Shown here: positions 3,838 to 15,616 of the stretch, piece by piece
Layout of the letters: each line of letters begins with the position of its first letter
How positions within the stretch are numbered: the first letter of the stretch is position 1
From: a virus
Direction: 5' to 3' (one strand)
UHGV virus genome: UHGV-0139471
DNA: 21,066 bases
Made by a program: the position numbers and the translations under genes
The notes under the pieces: generated by a model
What the model saw: the letters and a program-made list of their open reading frames with translations, nothing else
The model's database searches: none
Told to the model about the DNA's origin: nothing

Positions 3838-3851
3838 AATGGCTCCTTTAA

Positions 3852-3865
3852 CTAAGTTTGATTAG
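3852..3865. promoter_or_regulatory. operator-like palindrome CTAAGTTTGATTAG (OR-type site overlapping pR)
   Basis: 14-bp CTAAG-N5-TTAG inverted repeat just downstream of the predicted pR -10 element. Confidence 0.5.
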
Positions 3866-3894
3866 ATAATAATTACCAATCTATCTTTGGTCAA
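3866..3894 (-). promoter_or_regulatory. pR-like promoter for cro and the leftward early operon
   Basis: On the minus strand: -35 TTGACC (3894..3889), 17-bp spacer, -10 TATTAT (3871..3866). Confidence 0.5.
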
Positions 3895-3900
3895 TAAAAA

Positions 3901-3914
3901 CTAAGATTGCTTAG
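3901..3914. promoter_or_regulatory. operator-like palindrome CTAAGATTGCTTAG
   Basis: Near-perfect 14-bp inverted repeat (CTAAG-ATTG-CTTAG) 24 bp upstream of the cI-like start. Confidence 0.5.
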
Positions 3915-3937
3915 CTTGATTGACTACTGGTGTGTAA

Positions 3938-4564
3938 ATGGAAACTGTCGGACAACGAATAAAATCGCTTAGGCGAATCACCAGAACCTCACAAAAAGAG
4001 CTTGGGAAGTTTTGTGGGGTCAGTGATGTCGCAGTTGGGTATTGGGAAAAGGACGTAAACGTCCCAGGAGGGGAATCTCTTTCCAAACTAGCAAAATTCT
4101 TCAATACATCAATTGATTACATACTTTTTGGCACTGAGTTTGAGGGAAACTTAATAACTAAGATGCGAAAAGTTCCCGTGATATCGTGGGTGCAAGCAGG
4201 ATTATTCACTGAATCAAAGCCTGAAGATGTCTTGCATGATGCCGAAAAATGGGTGGAAACGTCTCTCCGCATCAGCGATAACTCGTTTGCCCTTGAAGTA
4301 AAGGGAGACTCAATGACAAATCCTAATGGACTGCCCACGATTCCTGAAGGCGCAACGGTCATCGTTGATCCAGACATTGAGCCAATTCATGGAAAGATTG
4401 TAGTTGCACGAATAGATGGGACCAACGAGGCCACGGTCAAAAAACTGGTTGTAGACGGTCCGCAAAAATTTCTTGTCCCGCTAAATCCCCGTTATCCTAA
4501 CATCGCCATCAATGGTAACTGCGTCATTATTGGTGTGGTTAAAGGCGTTCAATACGAGCTCTGA
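3938..4564 (+). CDS. cI-like prophage repressor (HTH plus S24 LexA-like autopeptidase domain)
   Basis: 208 aa; N-terminal HTH (QKELGKFCGVSDVAVGYWE); C-terminal Ser/Lys dyad context (GDSM ... TVKKL) typical of LexA/cI self-cleaving repressors; divergent from cro. Confidence 0.9.
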   Translation: METVGQRIKSLRRITRTSQKELGKFCGVSDVAVGYWEKDVNVPGGESLSKLAKFFNTSIDYILFGTEFEGNLITKMRKVPVISWVQAGLFTESKPEDVLHDAEKWVETSLRISDNSFALEVKGDSMTNPNGLPTIPEGATVIVDPDIEPIHGKIVVARIDGTNEATVKKLVVDGPQKFLVPLNPRYPNIAINGNCVIIGVVKGVQYEL

Positions 4565-4583: not shown

Positions 4584-4616
4584 GACACCAAGCTAAGAAA
4601 AGTTTGGTGTTTTTTC
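4584..4616 (+). terminator. rho-independent terminator-like hairpin after the cI-like gene
   Basis: Stem acaccaa (4585-4591) / ttggtgt (4604-4610), 12-nt loop, followed by TTTTT. Confidence 0.5.
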
Positions 4617-4645
4617 TTGACGACAAAACTAAGTTAAGTTAGATT
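4617..4645 (+). promoter_or_regulatory. pL-like promoter with overlapping operator (CTAAGTTAAGTTAG at 4629-4642)
   Basis: -35 TTGACG (4617-4622), 17-bp spacer, -10 TAGATT (4640-4645); the third CTAAG-N5-TTAG palindrome overlaps spacer and -10. Confidence 0.5.
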
Positions 4646-4749
4646 TTCATCTATCAACAGCGAAGAGGCAGGACGCCCACGAAGTAGCCGCCCGGGGCAT
4701 ATGAAGTCCGGGATGATTCGCTGACAGATAAACCAAATAGGAACAGATC

Positions 4750-8016: not shown

Positions 8017-8216
8017 TGCCACATATGAAAGTTAAAGAACTGGTCGCTGCAGCTTACGCTGCGGCACCAGATCTACCACCGGAAGCGGCAGAGTTAATGC
8101 GCAATATTGCTTCACGACTGGATGTAACGTTCATCGCCCTTACCGAAGCAATGGACCAAAACACAGCGCAGGCTGCCGTGTTGGCAGTCCTGAATGGGGT
8201 TAAAAACAATGGCTAA
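8016..8216 (+). CDS. hypothetical protein (66 aa)
   Basis: ATG overlaps the stop of the HD gene (TAATG); Ala-rich helical-looking peptide. Confidence 0.45.
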   Translation: MPHMKVKELVAAAYAAAPDLPPEAAELMRNIASRLDVTFIALTEAMDQNTAQAAVLAVLNGVKNNG

Positions 8217-8994
8217 AAACTCGATCGACGTGTACGGCGCCAGCGGCAAAACCAACGCCCTGTCGTTCGAACCGGAAAAGCTGCATTTAGTCACCGATCA
8301 GACCCACCCTCTCTACGATGAGCGGGTCCACCTGCCGATCGACGAAGGGATGGTTCTGAACATCAAGGAGCTGGGTGTACTGGAGCCGATTATCGTCTGG
8401 AAAGACCCTGAAACAGGGCTCACCTGCGTGGTTGTAGGCCGTCAGCGCGTTAAACATACCCTGGAGGCAAATAAACTCCTTCTGAAAGAAGGCAAAGACC
8501 CACTGCTTGTTCCTGGGGTCGTTAAGCGCGGCTCAGCAAATCAGATGGCTAAATACATGGTCAGCGAAAATGAAATTCGCCGACCTGATACACCGCTCGG
8601 CCGGGCTAAAAAAATGTCAGACGCGCTCGACCGCGGTCTCGATGAGGACGATATTGCGGTGTTATTTGGCTGCAGCGTTCAGACCGTTCGTGCAACGCTG
8701 TCCCTTCTCGATGCCACCCAGGCCGTCCGGGAAGCGGTGGAGTCTGGCACTGTTACCGTTACCCAGGCACGTCAGCTTGGCACGCTTCCCCCGGAAGAGC
8801 AGCGGGAAAAAGTGAAAGAGATTGAATCTGCGACCGCTGGGACTACCGGCCATGAAAAAGCCAGGCGTCAGCGCGCCGTGCTTGGCGAAACTAAGTCACG
8901 TCTCAAATCACGCAAAGAAATCACAAAAGCCCTTGAAGCTGCCAGTGGTGAATATGCTGATGCACTGCGCTGGGTGCTCGGGGAGGTTGTATGA
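8194..8994 (+). CDS. ParB-like nuclease-domain protein
   Basis: 266 aa; N-terminal LEPIIVWKDPETGLTCVVVGRQRVKHTLEA resembles the ParB/Sulfiredoxin arginine-rich box; an alternative ATG at 8209 has a better-placed GGGG Shine-Dalgarno. Confidence 0.55.
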   Translation: MGLKTMAKNSIDVYGASGKTNALSFEPEKLHLVTDQTHPLYDERVHLPIDEGMVLNIKELGVLEPIIVWKDPETGLTCVVVGRQRVKHTLEANKLLLKEGKDPLLVPGVVKRGSANQMAKYMVSENEIRRPDTPLGRAKKMSDALDRGLDEDDIAVLFGCSVQTVRATLSLLDATQAVREAVESGTVTVTQARQLGTLPPEEQREKVKEIESATAGTTGHEKARRQRAVLGETKSRLKSRKEITKALEAASGEYADALRWVLGEVV

Positions 8995-10580: not shown

Positions 10581-10876
10581 TGGCGACCAAAGCGCAATTG
10601 CAAGGCCAATGCACGCGGTTGGAAAACGAAAACCGGGAACTTAGTCGCCTTTTGGCAAGGGCTGAGCGTGAGCTTAACAACAGACTGCTGGATGAAGAGT
10701 TACCGCCCGAGGAAATCCCGTACCGCGTTACCTGCTTAATGAAGTATCACAGCATGCCGTGGGAAGTGTTCTGGTGTTCTGAGCACAAGCGATGGATGGA
10801 TGAGATGGATAGTAGTTTTCCGTACTCAATGAGCGATAACACTTGCCCTGTATGCCGAGATGAGGAGGGCCAATGA
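10577..10876 (+). CDS. hypothetical protein with putative zinc-ribbon (99 aa)
   Basis: Overlapping start; Cys/His pairs (CSEH ... CPVC) suggest a small zinc-binding element. Confidence 0.55.
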
Positions 10877-11304
10877 CCAGCAAATTAACCAGAGAGCCAA
10901 TCACTCACGAATTGAAAATTTACCCTGAATTCTTCTCTGCTGTTTGTACTGGCGTTAAACGCGCAGAGCTACGCAAAAATGACCGTGATTATCGGGTAGG
11001 CGACACTCTCCACCTGCTGGAGACACCGCGCGGTAGCTGTAACCCGACAGGTGAATACATCAATGTGATAATCACCCATATCGCTGACGTTGGTGAATGG
11101 ATGACGGGTTATGTCCTGCTGAGTGTTAAGCGGGAAACGGTGGGCAGCGAGCCGATAGTGATGGACGGACTCGTTAAAGCCGTAGAGTTCTATGAGCAGG
11201 TTAAACGCGAAAATCCGCCAGTCGAAACAGGCGCATGGAAAGATGCTGTTGATTGGGTGCTGAAGGAAGCCTGCCGCGCCGCCATGCTCCAGTTGAGAGG
11301 ATGA
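10873..11304 (+). CDS. DUF3850-like (ASCH/PUA-fold) protein
   Basis: 143 aa; N-terminal [33 protein letters not shown] matches the DUF3850 signature as I recall it (K-x-F-E-I-R-K-N-D-R-D-Y-x-V-G-D). Confidence 0.55.
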
Positions 11305-11308
11305 AGAG

Positions 11309-11512
11309 ATGACTATCAGGCGTAAAAGTGGACTTAAGACTGTTTTATTTTTCTTTATTTTGTTGGTTTTAGTGATTCCAGTTTCACCAATACTTCTTAT
11401 TTGTTTTATAGGTCAAAAGGCTGATATTTTTCTAGGATTGTACGATAGTATGCTTCTTAGCCAAATCAGTCGCCTACATGACAAGATAAATCCTTATGAG
11501 GCGCGTGACTGA
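11309..11512 (+). CDS. small membrane protein (67 aa)
   Basis: GAGAGGA Shine-Dalgarno; one long hydrophobic segment (VLFFFILLVLVIPVSPILLICFI); first gene of an A+T-rich module. Confidence 0.45.
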   Translation: MTIRRKSGLKTVLFFFILLVLVIPVSPILLICFIGQKADIFLGLYDSMLLSQISRLHDKINPYEARD

Positions 11513-11655
11513 TGAAAACCGTAAAAGAAAATCCAGACGCCACTAATTATCGTGGTTTTTGGCGTGTAACCGTGTGGGCTTGTTTATTCTGTGTAATATT
11601 TTTCTGGTTGCCCGCTATTTCAGTAACCATTTATTACTTTTCCTCGGGGAGTTAA
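11512..11655 (+). CDS. very small membrane protein (47 aa)
   Basis: Below the track cutoff. ATG overlaps the upstream stop (TGATG) and its TAA overlaps the next ATG (TAATG); translation MKTVKENPDATNYRGFWRVTVWACLFCVIFFWLPAISVTIYYFSSGS has one hydrophobic helix. The competing frame is the 11559 TTG-start track ORF. Confidence 0.3.
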   Translation: MKTVKENPDATNYRGFWRVTVWACLFCVIFFWLPAISVTIYYFSSGS

Positions 11656-11912: not shown

Positions 11913-12276
11913 AATTAAGACCAAAAGAAGCGAGCGCCGTTTGTCGCGTGACCTGATAGAGGAAGGGTTAAGGCTGGTGGCAGAACGTAGCGAGCGGGAA
12001 GGAGTGAACAAAGATACCGCTAAACGTCATGCTTCAGCCATCAGAGGAGTGATTCCGGCGCTGGGTGTAGTAAAGAGTAAGGTTGTGAAGCCGGGGGTTT
12101 GGGTTTCGCTTTATACCCGCAGCGATGCTACATCGACCGTCATCAGCAATATGAAGTTTACCGCCGTCATATTTGAGTGGGCCGGACAGCAGGAGTATGA
12201 AGATTCGGCATTTTACGCCGCTATCGCTTGTGCTATCAGAACTGCACTGTCTGTGCGTGGTGAAGTGAGGGGTTAG
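11905..12276 (+). CDS. hypothetical protein (123 aa)
   Basis: ATG at 11905 with AAGGTGA Shine-Dalgarno; overlaps the upstream stop by 8 nt. Confidence 0.5.
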   Translation: MDKIKTKRSERRLSRDLIEEGLRLVAERSEREGVNKDTAKRHASAIRGVIPALGVVKSKVVKPGVWVSLYTRSDATSTVISNMKFTAVIFEWAGQQEYEDSAFYAAIACAIRTALSVRGEVRG

Positions 12277-12277
12277 A

Positions 12278-12445
12278 ATGAACTTGGTTTTCTCTCTCAT
12301 TTTTTTAACGGGCTGCATACTGCTTGGCAGTATTTCTGTTTTTTTGTGGGGTGATGGTCGCAGGAAACTTAGCGTTGCATTTGCACTATTGGTTTTGATG
12401 TATGCATTTGCAGCCTGTATAAATTTATTTTCGGGGAGGTTGTGA
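12278..12445 (+). CDS. very small membrane protein (55 aa, two hydrophobic segments)
   Basis: Below the track cutoff. ATG 2 nt after the upstream stop, GAGGGG upstream; MNLVFSLIFLTGCILLGSISVFLWGDGRRKLSVAFALLVLMYAFAACINLFSGRL; TGA overlaps the recombinase ATG (TGATG). Confidence 0.35.
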   Translation: MNLVFSLIFLTGCILLGSISVFLWGDGRRKLSVAFALLVLMYAFAACINLFSGRL

Positions 12446-13323
12446 TGTTAAGCGATCTTCTTATCATGGTTGACCGCCGTGCTCAGGCGGTCAGTTTGCG
12501 CGAAAAAACAATTATTAACGAACGTCACGCCGTCCGTATGCTGGAGCCTGTTTTATCTCTTGGGGTACGCGCTGCGAGCGTACCTGATACATGGGTAAGA
12601 TACGCCGACCGTTGCATTGATAATGGGCTGGCGGCGTCTACGGTTCGCCAGCGCATCGATTGCGTTGCGGCGGTTGTAGCCTGGGTAATTCATGCTGATA
12701 TTAAATTCAAACCAGCCGCGCCGGGCTCTCTGAGCAGGATGCTTGATGCCATGCGTACAGCGGCAAGAGCTATAGGCAAGCGGATAAAGCGTCACAGGGC
12801 ATTGAGCAGGCCAGCCCGTGTAAGTGTTGACGAGTATTCTACGGTAGTGCGGGATATTGAGTCTTTACGGGATCCATACAGGGCCGCAGCCCGTATGATG
12901 CTGTGTTTTGGAATGAGGGCAACAGAAACGCTTTCACTGTCTCCATCATCAATTCTTTCAGGTGGGAAGTTGTTTGTTCCTGACCGGGAGACTAAAAATC
13001 ACTCCGATTTGCTTTTACCTTTGCCAATTAAATACATTCCTTTAATCGAGGAGTGGCTAAGCGTGATAGGTGAGTCAGAAATAAAGTACAACACGCTTGT
13101 AACGACGATTTCCCGCGCCGGGATTAAATGGCGCTGCCATGATTTAAGAAAATTATTCAGAACTTCCGCCGCCGTGCGTGGTGAGGATTATCTTGCAACA
13201 GAATTGATATTAAATCACGCAGTGAAGGACGTTCCGAGCGTTTACTTACAATCTCCACCGTTTGCGGCAATGAGGCGAGTTTTAAACAATTCGATTGAAG
13301 AATATTTACAGGTTAAAGGGTAG
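12445..13323 (+). CDS. divergent tyrosine recombinase (integrase/invertase family)
   Basis: About 292 aa; GGGGAGG Shine-Dalgarno 5 nt upstream of ATG 12445; catalytic-residue pattern readable: Arg (GMRATETL), H-x-x-R (CHDLRKLF), downstream His and Tyr (ILNH ... SVYLQ). Short for a phage integrase; no obvious arm-binding N-domain. Confidence 0.65.
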   Translation: MLSDLLIMVDRRAQAVSLREKTIINERHAVRMLEPVLSLGVRAASVPDTWVRYADRCIDNGLAASTVRQRIDCVAAVVAWVIHADIKFKPAAPGSLSRMLDAMRTAARAIGKRIKRHRALSRPARVSVDEYSTVVRDIESLRDPYRAAARMMLCFGMRATETLSLSPSSILSGGKLFVPDRETKNHSDLLLPLPIKYIPLIEEWLSVIGESEIKYNTLVTTISRAGIKWRCHDLRKLFRTSAAVRGEDYLATELILNHAVKDVPSVYLQSPPFAAMRRVLNNSIEEYLQVKG

Positions 13324-13326
13324 GGA

Positions 13327-13584
13327 ATGGAAAAATCAGCGATTAAAGATAATGATATTATGTATCAAAAGAAGTATCCGAGAGATTGTTTGTTTAAATT
13401 GCTTCAACTACGCACTAATTTAAAAGCGAAGCCAGATATTTACCGGATAGAAATGATTAACCGCAGCGGTGATAAGATTTTGATGGGAGGGCGGCAAACA
13501 ACACAGGAGGCGATTTCTCTTTATCAGGATATTGCGACACTTAGCCCGTCAGAAGTGGAGGCGGCATTCAGTAGCATGGTCTAA
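13327..13584 (+). CDS. hypothetical protein (85 aa)
   Basis: Immediately follows the recombinase; followed by a strong terminator. Confidence 0.5.
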   Translation: MEKSAIKDNDIMYQKKYPRDCLFKLLQLRTNLKAKPDIYRIEMINRSGDKILMGGRQTTQEAISLYQDIATLSPSEVEAAFSSMV

Positions 13585-13603
13585 GAGCAGACCACAAAAA
13601 CGA

Positions 13604-13628
13604 GCCCGGCATCTGCCGGGTTTTTTTA
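13604..13628 (+). terminator. rho-independent terminator
   Basis: GC stem cccgg / ccggg (13605-13620) followed by TTTTTTT (13621-13627). Confidence 0.65.
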
Positions 13629-14662
13629 TGCCTGAACATTGCATCACAAATAATGTAAGTAAAAAGTTAAATATCGATTAACACAAAAGCAACATAATAC
13701 ACGTTAAATCATGTGACGGGATTGTTAAATGTATGTTGTGTGGATAATTTTATAAGCATCATGAAATGATGGTTAAGTAAATGATTGAAGTCTCGTTTTA
13801 TGCAAAATAACCAAAAATAAATTTAACCTATAAAATTCAGTGAATTATGTAATTTTGATTGTTTTTCATTCAAAAGTGACTCGATTTTTGGCGTCAATAC
13901 CTTGCATTTTTGCGCTGAGGAAAAATAAAAATAATTAAGTGAAATATTCATTAATTTAATCAATAGGTTATAGTTGTGAGGCAAACGGATGTATAAGGTT
14001 TGACATTCAGTGTCAGCACGAGTAAAAGACCAAAAAGAGGGCAATTAAAGCCATTTTATTTAAAAATGTTTCCACTTGAAATAAAGCCGGACATTTACCA
14101 CCTTACCTATAGCTATACGAATCAATAAGCTATGTTATTTTTCGTGGTGTTTACTGTTTTATTCGCCGGAAATGTTTCTGTAATCTCATCTGACCAGTGC
14201 GTTTAGCATCTTGACATGAGTTTGTTATGAGTTAGCAGAAAGGGGGAAAGCATAAGCATGTGGGGTGGCGGAAAAGATAAAATCGCGCTCAGGCTTGTTT
14301 CCACCAGCGATTGCAGGAATCTATCACTTTTCACTGATGTTTGATAACGGTTAAATATTTGACCGTTCAATTATGTTTGCTCTGTTACATATTCATTGCG
14401 TTAAAAATGAGCATAACAAAAGCAACAAATATCAAACATTCATGTTGGCACGTTAAATGTTATCCATATTGAAAGTGAGTAGTGATGCGTGGTTGGGGCG
14501 ATATTGACCACTAACTTAAATCGTGCAGGTGGGTAGTTTCATGCTGCTTATCCACAGATTTAGCCTTGTGCGTAATATTGACACGTATTACCGCTGGAGC
14601 CGTTTCTGTAATTAGTCAGGCCATTGCCTTTAAATCACCTCTATATAAAGGAGGTGAACTTC

Positions 14663-15616
14663 ATGGCTTACGGGCGTCAGTTCGAAATAACCGTTAACTG
14701 CACAGATGGAGAGACGATCCACATTACTGATGTGGACGTTGATTTCTCGTCTGTTCGCGACGATGAGAAAGAGCCAAACGAGGCCGATTTAACGTTGTGG
14801 GGTTTAACACCACAGACTCAGAACGCCATCGCTCAGGCAGGGTCAACCGTCAGTGTTGCCGCTGGCTATATAGATGAAGGGATGTTCACCCTGTTTCAGG
14901 GCGAACTTATCAGTGCCGTGACCATCAAGCCTAATGAGGTATACGGCCTGAAAATGAAAATCTACGAAGCGCTGATTCCGTTCCGGGCCAGCGTAACATC
15001 GCGCACGTTTCGCAAAGGTCAGAGCCTTAAAGATGCTGTTTTACAGGTAGCGTCCGATATGGGGATGGGTTGTCAGTTCTCTAAATCAGCTTCCTCTCTC
15101 ACCCTGGCTAAAAGCGTCAGCGCTGCGGCATTGTCCCGCGATGTGCTTACCAGCCTCTGCAAGCCAGTTAATGCCAACTGGTCGCTTCAGTATCAGTCAA
15201 TCATTGTCACTGCCGGTGATTCAATTCTTACCGGTGCCGCTGTTTTCTCCCCTAAAACAGGCTTGCTTGGTGCGCCGCTTCTGAAAATTCACTCCCCGAA
15301 ACGCACGAAGAAAAAGAACCCTTCCGAAAAAGAGCAGATCCAGAAGAAGCACGACAAAAGCATAACTACCTATGTCTGGCCCCCTAAGGGCTCGCAGGTT
15401 GACTACTCAAAAGGTGCTCGCCGCCAGATGGGGGTTATTGAGGCTGTTACATGGGAATCGTTGCTTTATGGCGGGGTTGAGATTGGCGAACAGGTAGAGC
15501 TTTCTTCTCCATCAATGGGCGAAGGCTGGATGGTTATTGTGAAGAAGATTTCCCATCGCTTTAGTACCCGCGACCGTCAGGCGTGGTCATCGTCATGGGA
15601 GGGCATCATTGCATGA
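14663..15616 (+). CDS. phage structural protein, first gene of baseplate-like operon (possible hub component)
   Basis: ATG at 14663 with strong AGGAGGT Shine-Dalgarno (track ORF starts at an upstream TTG); 317 aa; stop overlaps the spike gene ATG. Hub assignment rests on position only. Confidence 0.55.
   Translation: MAYGRQFEITVNCTDGETIHITDVDVDFSSVRDDEKEPNEADLTLWGLTPQTQNAIAQAGSTVSVAAGYIDEGMFTLFQGELISAVTIKPNEVYGLKMKIYEALIPFRASVTSRTFRKGQSLKDAVLQVASDMGMGCQFSKSASSLTLAKSVSAAALSRDVLTSLCKPVNANWSLQYQSIIVTAGDSILTGAAVFSPKTGLLGAPLLKIHSPKRTKKKNPSEKEQIQKKHDKSITTYVWPPKGSQVDYSKGARRQMGVIEAVTWESLLYGGVEIGEQVELSSPSMGEGWMVIVKKISHRFSTRDRQAWSSSWEGIIA

Follow-up and report, generated by a model that had tools for sequence, protein, structure and literature searches.

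In DnaA-dependent replication origins such as E. coli oriC, P1 oriR, F ori2 and the pSC101 ori, opposed TTATCCACA boxes are accompanied by an adjacent AT-rich tract and IHF-like sites, and the boxes lie within ~250 bp. datA and DARS are likewise non-coding, combine a few strong DnaA boxes with IHF-type sites and serve in cis as protein-handling platforms. The late promoters governed by P2 Ogr, Mu C/Mor and P1 Lpa lie ahead of tail operons, have upstream dyads and no -35/-10 pair, and take up ~80 bp. A non-coding region that resembles each of these systems in part is described here. It occupies positions 13629-14662 (no strand assigned) of UHGV virus genome UHGV-0139471, a complete metagenome contig (ENA ERZ1743192, NODE_117) of 21,066 bp with an assembly coverage of ~6x, the whole of which is called the window below, and it lies between a tyrosine recombinase module and a baseplate operon. 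Sequence comparison indicates that the region is a selectively maintained array of predicted DNA-binding sites at fixed spacing around three DnaA boxes. Its core may be a host-DnaA-anchored replication origin or replication-control region, a reading to which we assign a probability of roughly 0.37.

The interval contains 34.7% G+C, compared with 49.3% for the window. On its left lies an intrinsic terminator (13602-13627, plus strand; stem GCCCGGC/GCCGGGT followed by T7) that closes the long, rightward early operon, reads as a terminator on the minus strand too, has a consensus fold z of -11 and is kept in all relatives including Serratia. The right border is the start codon of the hub gene (ATG 14663), with a Shine-Dalgarno sequence at 14648-14657. 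The first-pass annotation, which was made from the sequence alone, had found no credible open reading frame (ORF) here, and this was borne out: the longest frame inside, 73 aa on the minus strand, is not kept in relatives. PGAP also leaves the region unannotated.

When the flanking proteins were used as queries, more than 45 related prophage loci were recovered, from IMG/VR and from Raoultella, Klebsiella, Leclercia, Buttiauxella, E. coli, Kosakonia and Serratia; each has a gene-free gap of 1.05-1.2 kb after its recombinase module. In the main family the region is 65-92% identical to that of the window, and the alignment of 35 sequences is nearly indel-free, with ~24 conserved blocks of 6-29 bp each separated by variable spacers of constant length. 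Conservation is periodic at ~11 bp, not at 3 bp. Between distant pairs the identity is 0.57-0.64 in the region versus 0.30-0.54 at fourfold-degenerate sites of the hub gene, and the region is therefore under purifying selection. The left half diverges more than synonymous sites among close relatives, which suggests recombinational mosaicism within the region. The copy in the window has 5 changes at near-invariant columns versus 0-2 in its own clade; relaxed constraint in a mosaic phage was considered and set aside, this excess being too weak to use at a coverage of only 6x. The region had no match in cultured phages or plasmids, even in a low-stringency (distant) search, and occurs in 3 of 5426 complete E. 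coli genomes; it was present as one copy per genome, and a repeated or mobile element was rejected on these grounds. No description of the element or of the phage family was found in the searchable literature.

The strongest signal, overlooked in the first-pass annotation, is a set of three consensus DnaA boxes. Box 1 (13739-13747, minus strand) has variable flanks and reads TTATCCACA in 25 of 35 relatives and CTATCCACA in 10 of 35. Box 2 (14460-14468, plus strand) is TTATCCATA in the window and TTATCCACA in 29 of the 35. Box 3 (14548-14556, plus strand, in a block reaching to 14557; TTATCCACAG) follows a variable 5′ flank and contains TTATCCACA in 35/35; in Serratia it reads TTACCCACA. Scored against the consensus TTATNCACA, the three boxes are perfect or have one mismatch throughout the family, and they are dispersed rather than clustered; by simple arithmetic, chance alone would give ~0.008 perfect boxes per 1 kb. 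Conservation falls sharply at the edges of each 9-mer, and conserved 9-mers within variable flanks fit a 9-bp recognition unit. Box 1 has the opposite orientation to boxes 2 and 3, and the only conserved inverted repeat of the region is this 9-bp pair of DnaA boxes, TGTGGATAA/TTATCCACA, outside which the flanks are not conserved.

Box 1 lies in the left half of the region. A GTTAA/TGTTA (AACA) repeat array with ~11-bp phasing (13666-13738, plus strand; units at 13666, 13678 and 13690, the latter two in reverse complement, and at 13703, 13713, 13724 and 13735) runs into it from the left. Only 3 bp to its right begins a low-GC tract (13750-13975, no strand assigned) of 24.8% G+C with T-runs and IHF-like sites (AATCAATAGGTTA at 13958-13970); no recognisable 13-mer repeats were found there, and a conserved block, GCGTCAATACCTTGC, lies inside it at 13891-13905. 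Several repeats reported by the first-pass annotation are real in the letters and fare unequally in the alignment. GTTAAAT, with five plus-strand copies and a single minus-strand copy, is enriched (5 versus 0.31 expected); family-wide, only GTTAA in the left cluster is conserved. The direct repeats ACAAAAGCAACA (13683-13694 and 14416-14427) and CACGTTAAAT (13700-13709 and 14449-14458) stand where they had been placed. For ACAAAAGCAACA, however, the expected conservation in homologues failed, the left copy being found in 1 of 35 relatives only; an exact direct repeat of at least 12 nt also arose in 61 of 500 Markov resamplings, so that this one is within chance and only happens to overlie a weaker AACA-N-AACA pattern. 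The array site at 13724-13738 matches the ArcA-P consensus GTTAATTAAATGTTA within 1-2 mismatches in 10 of 29 relatives and has 4 mismatches in this window; the ArcA-P-like direct repeats were kept as a lead only.

Three distant relatives help to tell the parts of the interval apart. Their recombinases are 64% (L068, IMG/VR), 50% (L183, K. aerogenes) and 44% (L182, Serratia) identical to that of the window. All three lack an 85-aa ORF that follows the recombinase gene in the window (13327-13584, plus strand; no family match; dispensable for the module), yet they keep the non-coding region. Common to them are the terminator, the GTTAA array with box 1, TGTTTC, a palindrome, TGTTACAT, TTGGCA, box 2, TGAC and GCAGG blocks and box 3, and the spacing of the right-hand blocks is identical out to Serratia (62-63, 15, 44, 21 and 22-23 bp). 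L183 differs by 9 bp in the distance from the palindrome to TGTTACAT. The core of L068 stays on the recombinase side and is parted from the hub gene by five extra genes (1.7 kb), and only the last ~75 nt (ATTACCGCT..CTGTAA..TTAAAT..Shine-Dalgarno) remain immediately ahead of the hub. This shows the interval to be composite, a ~0.93-kb core joined to a hub-proximal leader (14587-14662, plus strand) that contains ATTACCGCTGG, CGTTTCTGTAATTAG, TTTAAATC and the Shine-Dalgarno sequence AAGGAGGTGA. The five small genes inserted in L068 (9973-11536) carry their own promoter-like TTTACA..TATAAT, and at the same locus box 3 is immediately followed by another DnaA box in inverted orientation, TTATCCACAAAAACAGTGGATAA.

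We propose that the interval would act as a cis-acting element made of many short protein-binding sites at fixed distances. The core (~13629-14560) would recruit the host initiator DnaA to the three consensus boxes, box 1 facing left and boxes 2 and 3 facing right, and the 25%-GC tract beside box 1 would be the unwinding region. The GTTAA/TGTTA array, the dyads and the invariant blocks would bind further architectural or control proteins of the host or the phage, and the last ~75 nt would form a separate leader and proximal control region for the baseplate operon. DnaA binding, a replication start at this place and the occupants of the other blocks are what we infer from the sequence. The origin reading is favoured, first, because the boxes match the strongest DnaA box, TTATCCACA, are conserved and persist where the recombinases are only 44-64% identical and, second, because box 1 is opposed to the others and adjoins the tract of 24.8% G+C with its IHF-like sites. 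Third, the near absence of indels, the ~11-bp periodicity and the fixed spacing point to a higher-order nucleoprotein complex. Fourth, the region is under purifying selection. Fifth, the family genomes have no recognisable replication initiator, helicase, loader, primase or Rep-like gene, a gap that an origin served by the host would fill. The sequence GATC is depleted about tenfold in the region across the family (mean 0.31 versus 3.46 expected) and is absent from the window's copy, while 114 GATC sites occur elsewhere in the window, and the mosaic also carries a Dam gene; by our own reading, such depletion would spare a repeatedly firing origin sequestration by SeqA. CTAG, TCGA and GTAC are also low in the region and its homologues.

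Several observations weigh against an origin. With one mismatch allowed, the whole window shows no excess of DnaA boxes (6 versus 4.5 expected), so that the case for DnaA is carried by the perfect matches and by how well these are conserved. The three strong boxes span 810 bp, unlike the clustered boxes of oriC or plasmid origins, and the extra box-like sites that are kept are weak ones (TATTGAC). The repeat and block lists contain no tandem 17-22-bp iterons, and there is no adjacent Rep gene. The scarcity of GATC is the opposite of what is seen in oriC and P1 oriR. The best-conserved half of the region adjoins the late operon, as a transcriptional role would have it. Unannotated early proteins could be initiators, and the mosaic phage of the window has lambdoid replication genes (Phg_2220_C/HTH_36), yet keeps the region. 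Finally, no tailed phage known to us uses a purely host-DnaA origin for its replication. An origin and a control region for the late operon could also coexist here, the left half serving replication and the right half transcription.

Control of the late baseplate and tail-fibre operon is the main rival reading, and we consider it nearly as likely as the origin: the region would hold an activator-dependent or alternative-sigma promoter with several operator-like dyads and host-factor sites, which together would set the time of transcription of the second tail operon, and DnaA would serve as co-regulator or roadblock. With a strong, conserved terminator just upstream, the hub operon needs a start of its own, and the half on the hub side is the best conserved and invariant in spacing. 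That half and the adjoining centre contain the following blocks (plus strand unless stated). A 29-bp nearly invariant block, TGAGGCAAACGGAT(A/G)TATAAGGTT(G/T)GACA, lies at 13977-14005 (conservation 0.96), occurs once in the prophage and is kept in L068; L183 and L182 have TGTTATATG(T/A)GGATA in its place, which resembles a DnaA box. The dyad TGTTTC-N5-GAAA(C/T)A followed by AAGCCG (14067-14089) gives a small conserved hairpin or dyad signal. A composite block at 14164-14216 reads CGG.AATGTTTC ... CATCTGACCAG(ATG) ... TAACGTATTGACA, and its AATGTTTC and ACCAG parts are retained in L183. From the block list comes GCTTGTTTCCACCAGCG (14293-14309), which holds the third of four TGTTTC copies in the region and keeps its TGTTTC at a fixed distance in L182 and L183; TATTGAC also occurs four times. 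A reverse-strand Chi site in this block was dropped as a candidate, as it is not kept in distant clades.

Further to the right, the palindrome described in the first-pass annotation was found as a 22-bp element, AACGGTTAAAT/ATTTGACCGTT (14346-14367, no strand assigned), with a consensus fold z of about -18 to -20. It is conserved, and its arms co-vary in a compensatory manner between clades (ACGGT/ACCGT, ACGGG/CCCGT, ATGGT/ACCAT, GCGGG/CCCGC). The invariant block (C)TGTTACATAT (14382-14393) is retained in L068, L182 and L183, 62-63 bp upstream of TTGGCA. Next comes TTGGCACG (14445-14452), with invariant TGGCAC, 15 bp upstream of box 2; presumably it is comparable to the -24 element of sigma54 promoters, with GT in place of the GC at -12. 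The blocks ATATTGACCACTAAC and (G)TGCAGG(T) (14501-14530) keep fixed distances of 44 and 21 bp, and A.CCTTG and AATATTGACA (14562-14584) are missing in L068, where the genes are inserted. Partial resemblances to a Ter/Tus site, judged by eye, were not conserved, and the repeats of the immunity region (ACTAAG..CTTAG) are absent, so that neither Ter/Tus-like sites nor CI operators were retained as candidates. An IMG/VR scan with an 18-mer from the invariant block recovered the same family and three unrelated matches, one in coding sequence and two in a repeat-rich intergenic region of low-GC phage. In the latter, unrelated low-GC phage (L170 ~1340 and L171 ~1830; IMG/VR 3300008279_000005 and 7000000677_000124), the 18-mer AAACGGATATATAAGGCT sits in an intergenic region of three ~27-bp repeats (..TATAT..GGC.CGTC.GAT.AA..); this may reflect chance or a shared binding motif.

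The dyads TGTTTC-N5-GAAACA and CATCTGACCAGATG and the 22-bp palindrome, the co-variation of whose arms is operator-like, are thus what a regulated promoter region might contain, as is the element CG..GTTTCTG(T/C)AAT in two copies (14164-14184 and 14592-14612). The absence of a canonical sigma70 promoter is also in keeping with activator-dependent late promoters. The first-pass annotation had pointed to sigma70-like -35 boxes, TTGACA at 14000-14005 and 14211-14216; both are present, the former in 7 of 35 relatives (TGGACA in the others) and the latter, inside the composite block, in 35 of 35, but neither has a conserved -10 element, and none lies downstream of TTGACA at 14211 or 14578. A sigma70 promoter scan of the region gave fewer sites than shuffled sequences (2 versus 4.7), and an alignment-wide scan of both strands with a position weight matrix found no conserved -35/-10 pair, the best 25th-percentile score being ~4 bits. 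This lack of a pair on either strand counts against a promoter as well. Moreover, 12 conserved blocks appear neither upstream of the terminase operon nor elsewhere in the E. coli CX12 prophage; the core of L068 has been parted from the hub by genes with a promoter-like sequence of their own and stays with the recombinase; the palindrome-TGTTACAT distance is not constant, differing by 9 bp in L183; and 1 kb with three perfect DnaA boxes far exceeds what known late promoters need.

A role as recombination DNA for the phage recombinase or for XerD, be it as an attachment (att) site with arm repeats, an accessory or resolution site or an invertible switch, we hold to be decidedly improbable. The neighbouring gene (12445-13323, plus strand) encodes a divergent tyrosine recombinase of 292 aa, about the size of Xer and Cre, with a borderline match to Pfam PF00589 and a PHROG integrase assignment, and is the last large gene of the early operon. 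Its catalytic residues R158, K184, H232, R235, H258 and Y267 do not vary even in relatives with 44% identity, and no PDB or NCBIfam relative was found. The first-pass view of functional, gene-free, protein-binding DNA with a regulatory or architectural role beside a genuine tyrosine recombinase is upheld. The region begins 305 bp after the recombinase stop codon, or directly after it in L068, L182 and L183; its place is always immediately downstream of an intact recombinase gene, with which it remains in L068, and this speaks for a recombination role. So does GTTAAAT, which is the outer, XerD-specific part of the XerD arm of dif, TTATGTTAAAT, given that the phage integrates at dif. Phased direct repeats are likewise seen in binding arrays of the Xis, Cox and Apl type, and the inverted repeats of fimS are 9 bp long, as is the repeat formed by box 1 with boxes 2 and 3.

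The state of integrated prophages argues the other way. The first-pass annotation had suggested an attachment site; in prophages within complete chromosomes, two of E. coli among them, and in contigs of at least 0.5 Mb, the region is intact and uninterrupted in every case, and comparison with relatives places the junction repeats at the prophage ends, 3.4-5 kb away. The right junction is an exact 28-bp E. coli dif, ATTTAACATAA-TATACA-TTATGCGCACC, 193 bp after an Rz-like gene; in E. coli CX12 it adjoins hipBA, and the prophage comprises the 34.5 kb between the two junction sites. The left junction consists of the XerD arm ATTTAACATAA and the TATACA central region, then a degenerate, phage-specific arm (L074:7224, L038:11883(-), L069:6534, L001:10387, L056:6323, L182:3979, L183:5175, L185:1490 for the junction positions), and a Logan contig of 33.8 kb starts exactly at the junction repeat. 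Judging from these junctions, the prophage family integrates at dif, in an IMEX-like manner, while encoding a tyrosine recombinase of its own; the dif-integrating phages described in searchable papers are filamentous and tailless only. The window contains no ATTTAACATAA or TTATGTTAAAT: only GTTAAAT heptamers occur, of which GTTAA alone, a part of the XerD arm, is conserved, and a dif-like core inside the region was rejected, since no two arms flank a 6-8 bp centre and the partial resemblance is not conserved. An invertible switch, also raised earlier, finds no match in ~45 collinear loci, all in one orientation and free of inversion or deletion, or in the absence of a conserved promoter inside; the inverted-repeat unit is exactly the DnaA 9-mer in variable flanks.

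Other features were seen in and beside the prophages. E. coli CX12 and ECONIH4 carry the same element, with two adjacent site-specific integrases and a ~788-aa protein, beside the left dif-like junction and just outside the prophage (L001:6557-9171 and L186:593-5890), which suggests that a second element targets the dif locus in these two strains. At least 17 family members share the position of a conserved matS-like palindrome, GTGAC(A/G)N(C/T)GTCAC, which lies in the right arm of the relatives, ~1.2 kb upstream of the lysozyme gene (~4789-4915 in L074-L100), and occurs twice in the CX12 prophage (L038:14266 and 23890); by arithmetic, ~0.008 such sites are expected per 34.5 kb. KOPS (GGGNAGGG) is oriented 3:0 towards dif both in the CX12 prophage and in the window. 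The KOPS and matS-like sites may be adaptations to residence in the Ter macrodomain.

Very improbable, in our estimate, is a host-DnaA device resembling datA or DARS, in which boxes amplified along with the phage genome would titrate or recycle DnaA and thereby turn off or re-program host initiation, or would let the prophage sense the replication state of the host. Conserved boxes of the high-affinity type and IHF-like sites in ~1 kb of non-coding DNA would suit it, as would the other chromosome-maintenance adaptations (dif integration, the 3:0 KOPS bias and the conserved matS-like site). There are only three boxes, however, their spacing is unlike that of datA or DARS cores, and the other ~20 conserved blocks would be left unexplained. 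A broader variant is unlikely too, if somewhat less so: a phage-borne DnaA-handling platform at the terminus that would couple replication and a tail-gene switch to the initiation state of the host, or re-program host initiation, with no phage initiator. Were that platform real, it would give a temperate phage a new means of sensing or using the cell cycle of its host.

Least probable is that the region encodes one or more non-coding RNAs or a tiny protein. The idea is invited by the length of the gene-free interval, by the terminator at its border, which works on the minus strand too, and by weak sub-threshold Rfam matches, such as MicC over the terminator (23.7 bits versus a gathering score of 90), but the region has no conserved promoter, no open frame common to the clades, no 3-nt periodicity of substitution (ratio 1.0-1.6 versus 88 in a neighbouring coding control), no Rfam match at the gathering score with only noise at E <= 5, no tRNA or tmRNA and, in RNAalifold runs with 120-nt sliding windows on both strands of 24 non-redundant sequences, consensus energies of ~0 except at the terminator, the TGTTTC-N5-GAAACA dyad and the palindrome, so that it is neither a gene nor a large structured RNA. 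Small ORFs or a known sRNA, named by the first-pass annotation as a competing explanation, can be put aside on the ORF comparison and Rfam.

The family to which the region belongs consists of myovirus-type prophages of 34-37 kb. Their order is the left att, an early operon of small genes, the recombinase, the non-coding region and the baseplate/tail-fibre operon, with tailspike, Ref and ERF on the minus strand, followed by terminase, head, sheath, tube, tape-measure and lysis genes and the right att. The hub gene (14663-15616, plus strand; PHROG 196 baseplate hub, E = 1e-37; PF22759) is the first of the baseplate and tail-fibre operon. The window departs from this order on the left: up to ~10.9-11.5 kb it is a lambdoid arm with no counterpart in the family, homology starting at ~10872-11542, and carries genes for Dam (208-1161), a Phg_2220_C/HTH_36 initiator (1795-2706), an S24 CI (3938-4564) and a ParB-HTH protein (8194-8994), together with P22_Cro and DUF2303. 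The window is thus either the genome of a mosaic phage or a chimera assembled at low coverage (6x). Operator-like ACTAAG..CTTAG/TTAGAT repeats flank the CI gene (3840-3935 and 4600-4660), one of them overlapping a promoter-like TTGACG-N17-TAGATT downstream of CI; they are probably the immunity operators of the lambdoid arm. Between a 126-aa ORF and the recombinase gene, ~180 bp of the window (12255-12443) are missing in relatives, which join 12254 to 12444 by ~12 bp; this extra stretch is rich in T and has the look of a leader or of a small ORF for a hydrophobic peptide.

About 3% of a 35-kb genome is thus non-coding DNA kept block by block from Klebsiella to Serratia. If the core is indeed a host-DnaA origin, it would explain how tailed phages with no replication genes multiply and would offer a compact origin or control module; if it instead switches the late operon, it would do so with DnaA involved and in an unusually elaborate way. 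The integration of tailed prophages at dif is arguably more surprising than the non-coding region itself.

Set against known systems, the region shares with DnaA-dependent origins the opposed boxes, the AT-rich tract beside one of them, the IHF-like sites, the fixed spacing of short blocks and possibly response-regulator sites by the left box. It differs in its length of ~0.9 kb, in boxes 720-810 bp apart, in lacking a close array of weak boxes, iterons and a Rep gene, and in its depletion of GATC. With lambda-type attP it has in common the AT-richness, the position directly downstream of a recombinase gene at the end of the early operon, phased repeats and IHF-like sites; unlike attP, it is unsplit in prophages, is about four times as long and accompanies a recombinase of only 292 aa, and the real att is a 28-bp dif-like site elsewhere. 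The order of recombinase, non-coding segment and structural operon, the 9-bp inverted repeat and the IHF-like sites recall the fimS switch; here, however, ~45 loci show one orientation, no promoter lies inside and the inverted repeat is a DnaA box. datA and DARS differ from it in box number and geometry, and it has many additional blocks and is phage-borne. Activator-dependent late promoters are matched in the position ahead of a tail operon, the missing -35/-10 pair and the upstream dyads, but not in length (~1 kb versus ~80 bp), and the motifs are not found in the other late operon, nor was an activator gene identified. As far as sequence features can tell, a cis-acting origin or regulatory region with DnaA boxes would be a known kind of element, and what appears to be new is its size, its architecture and its setting in dif-integrating tailed prophages.

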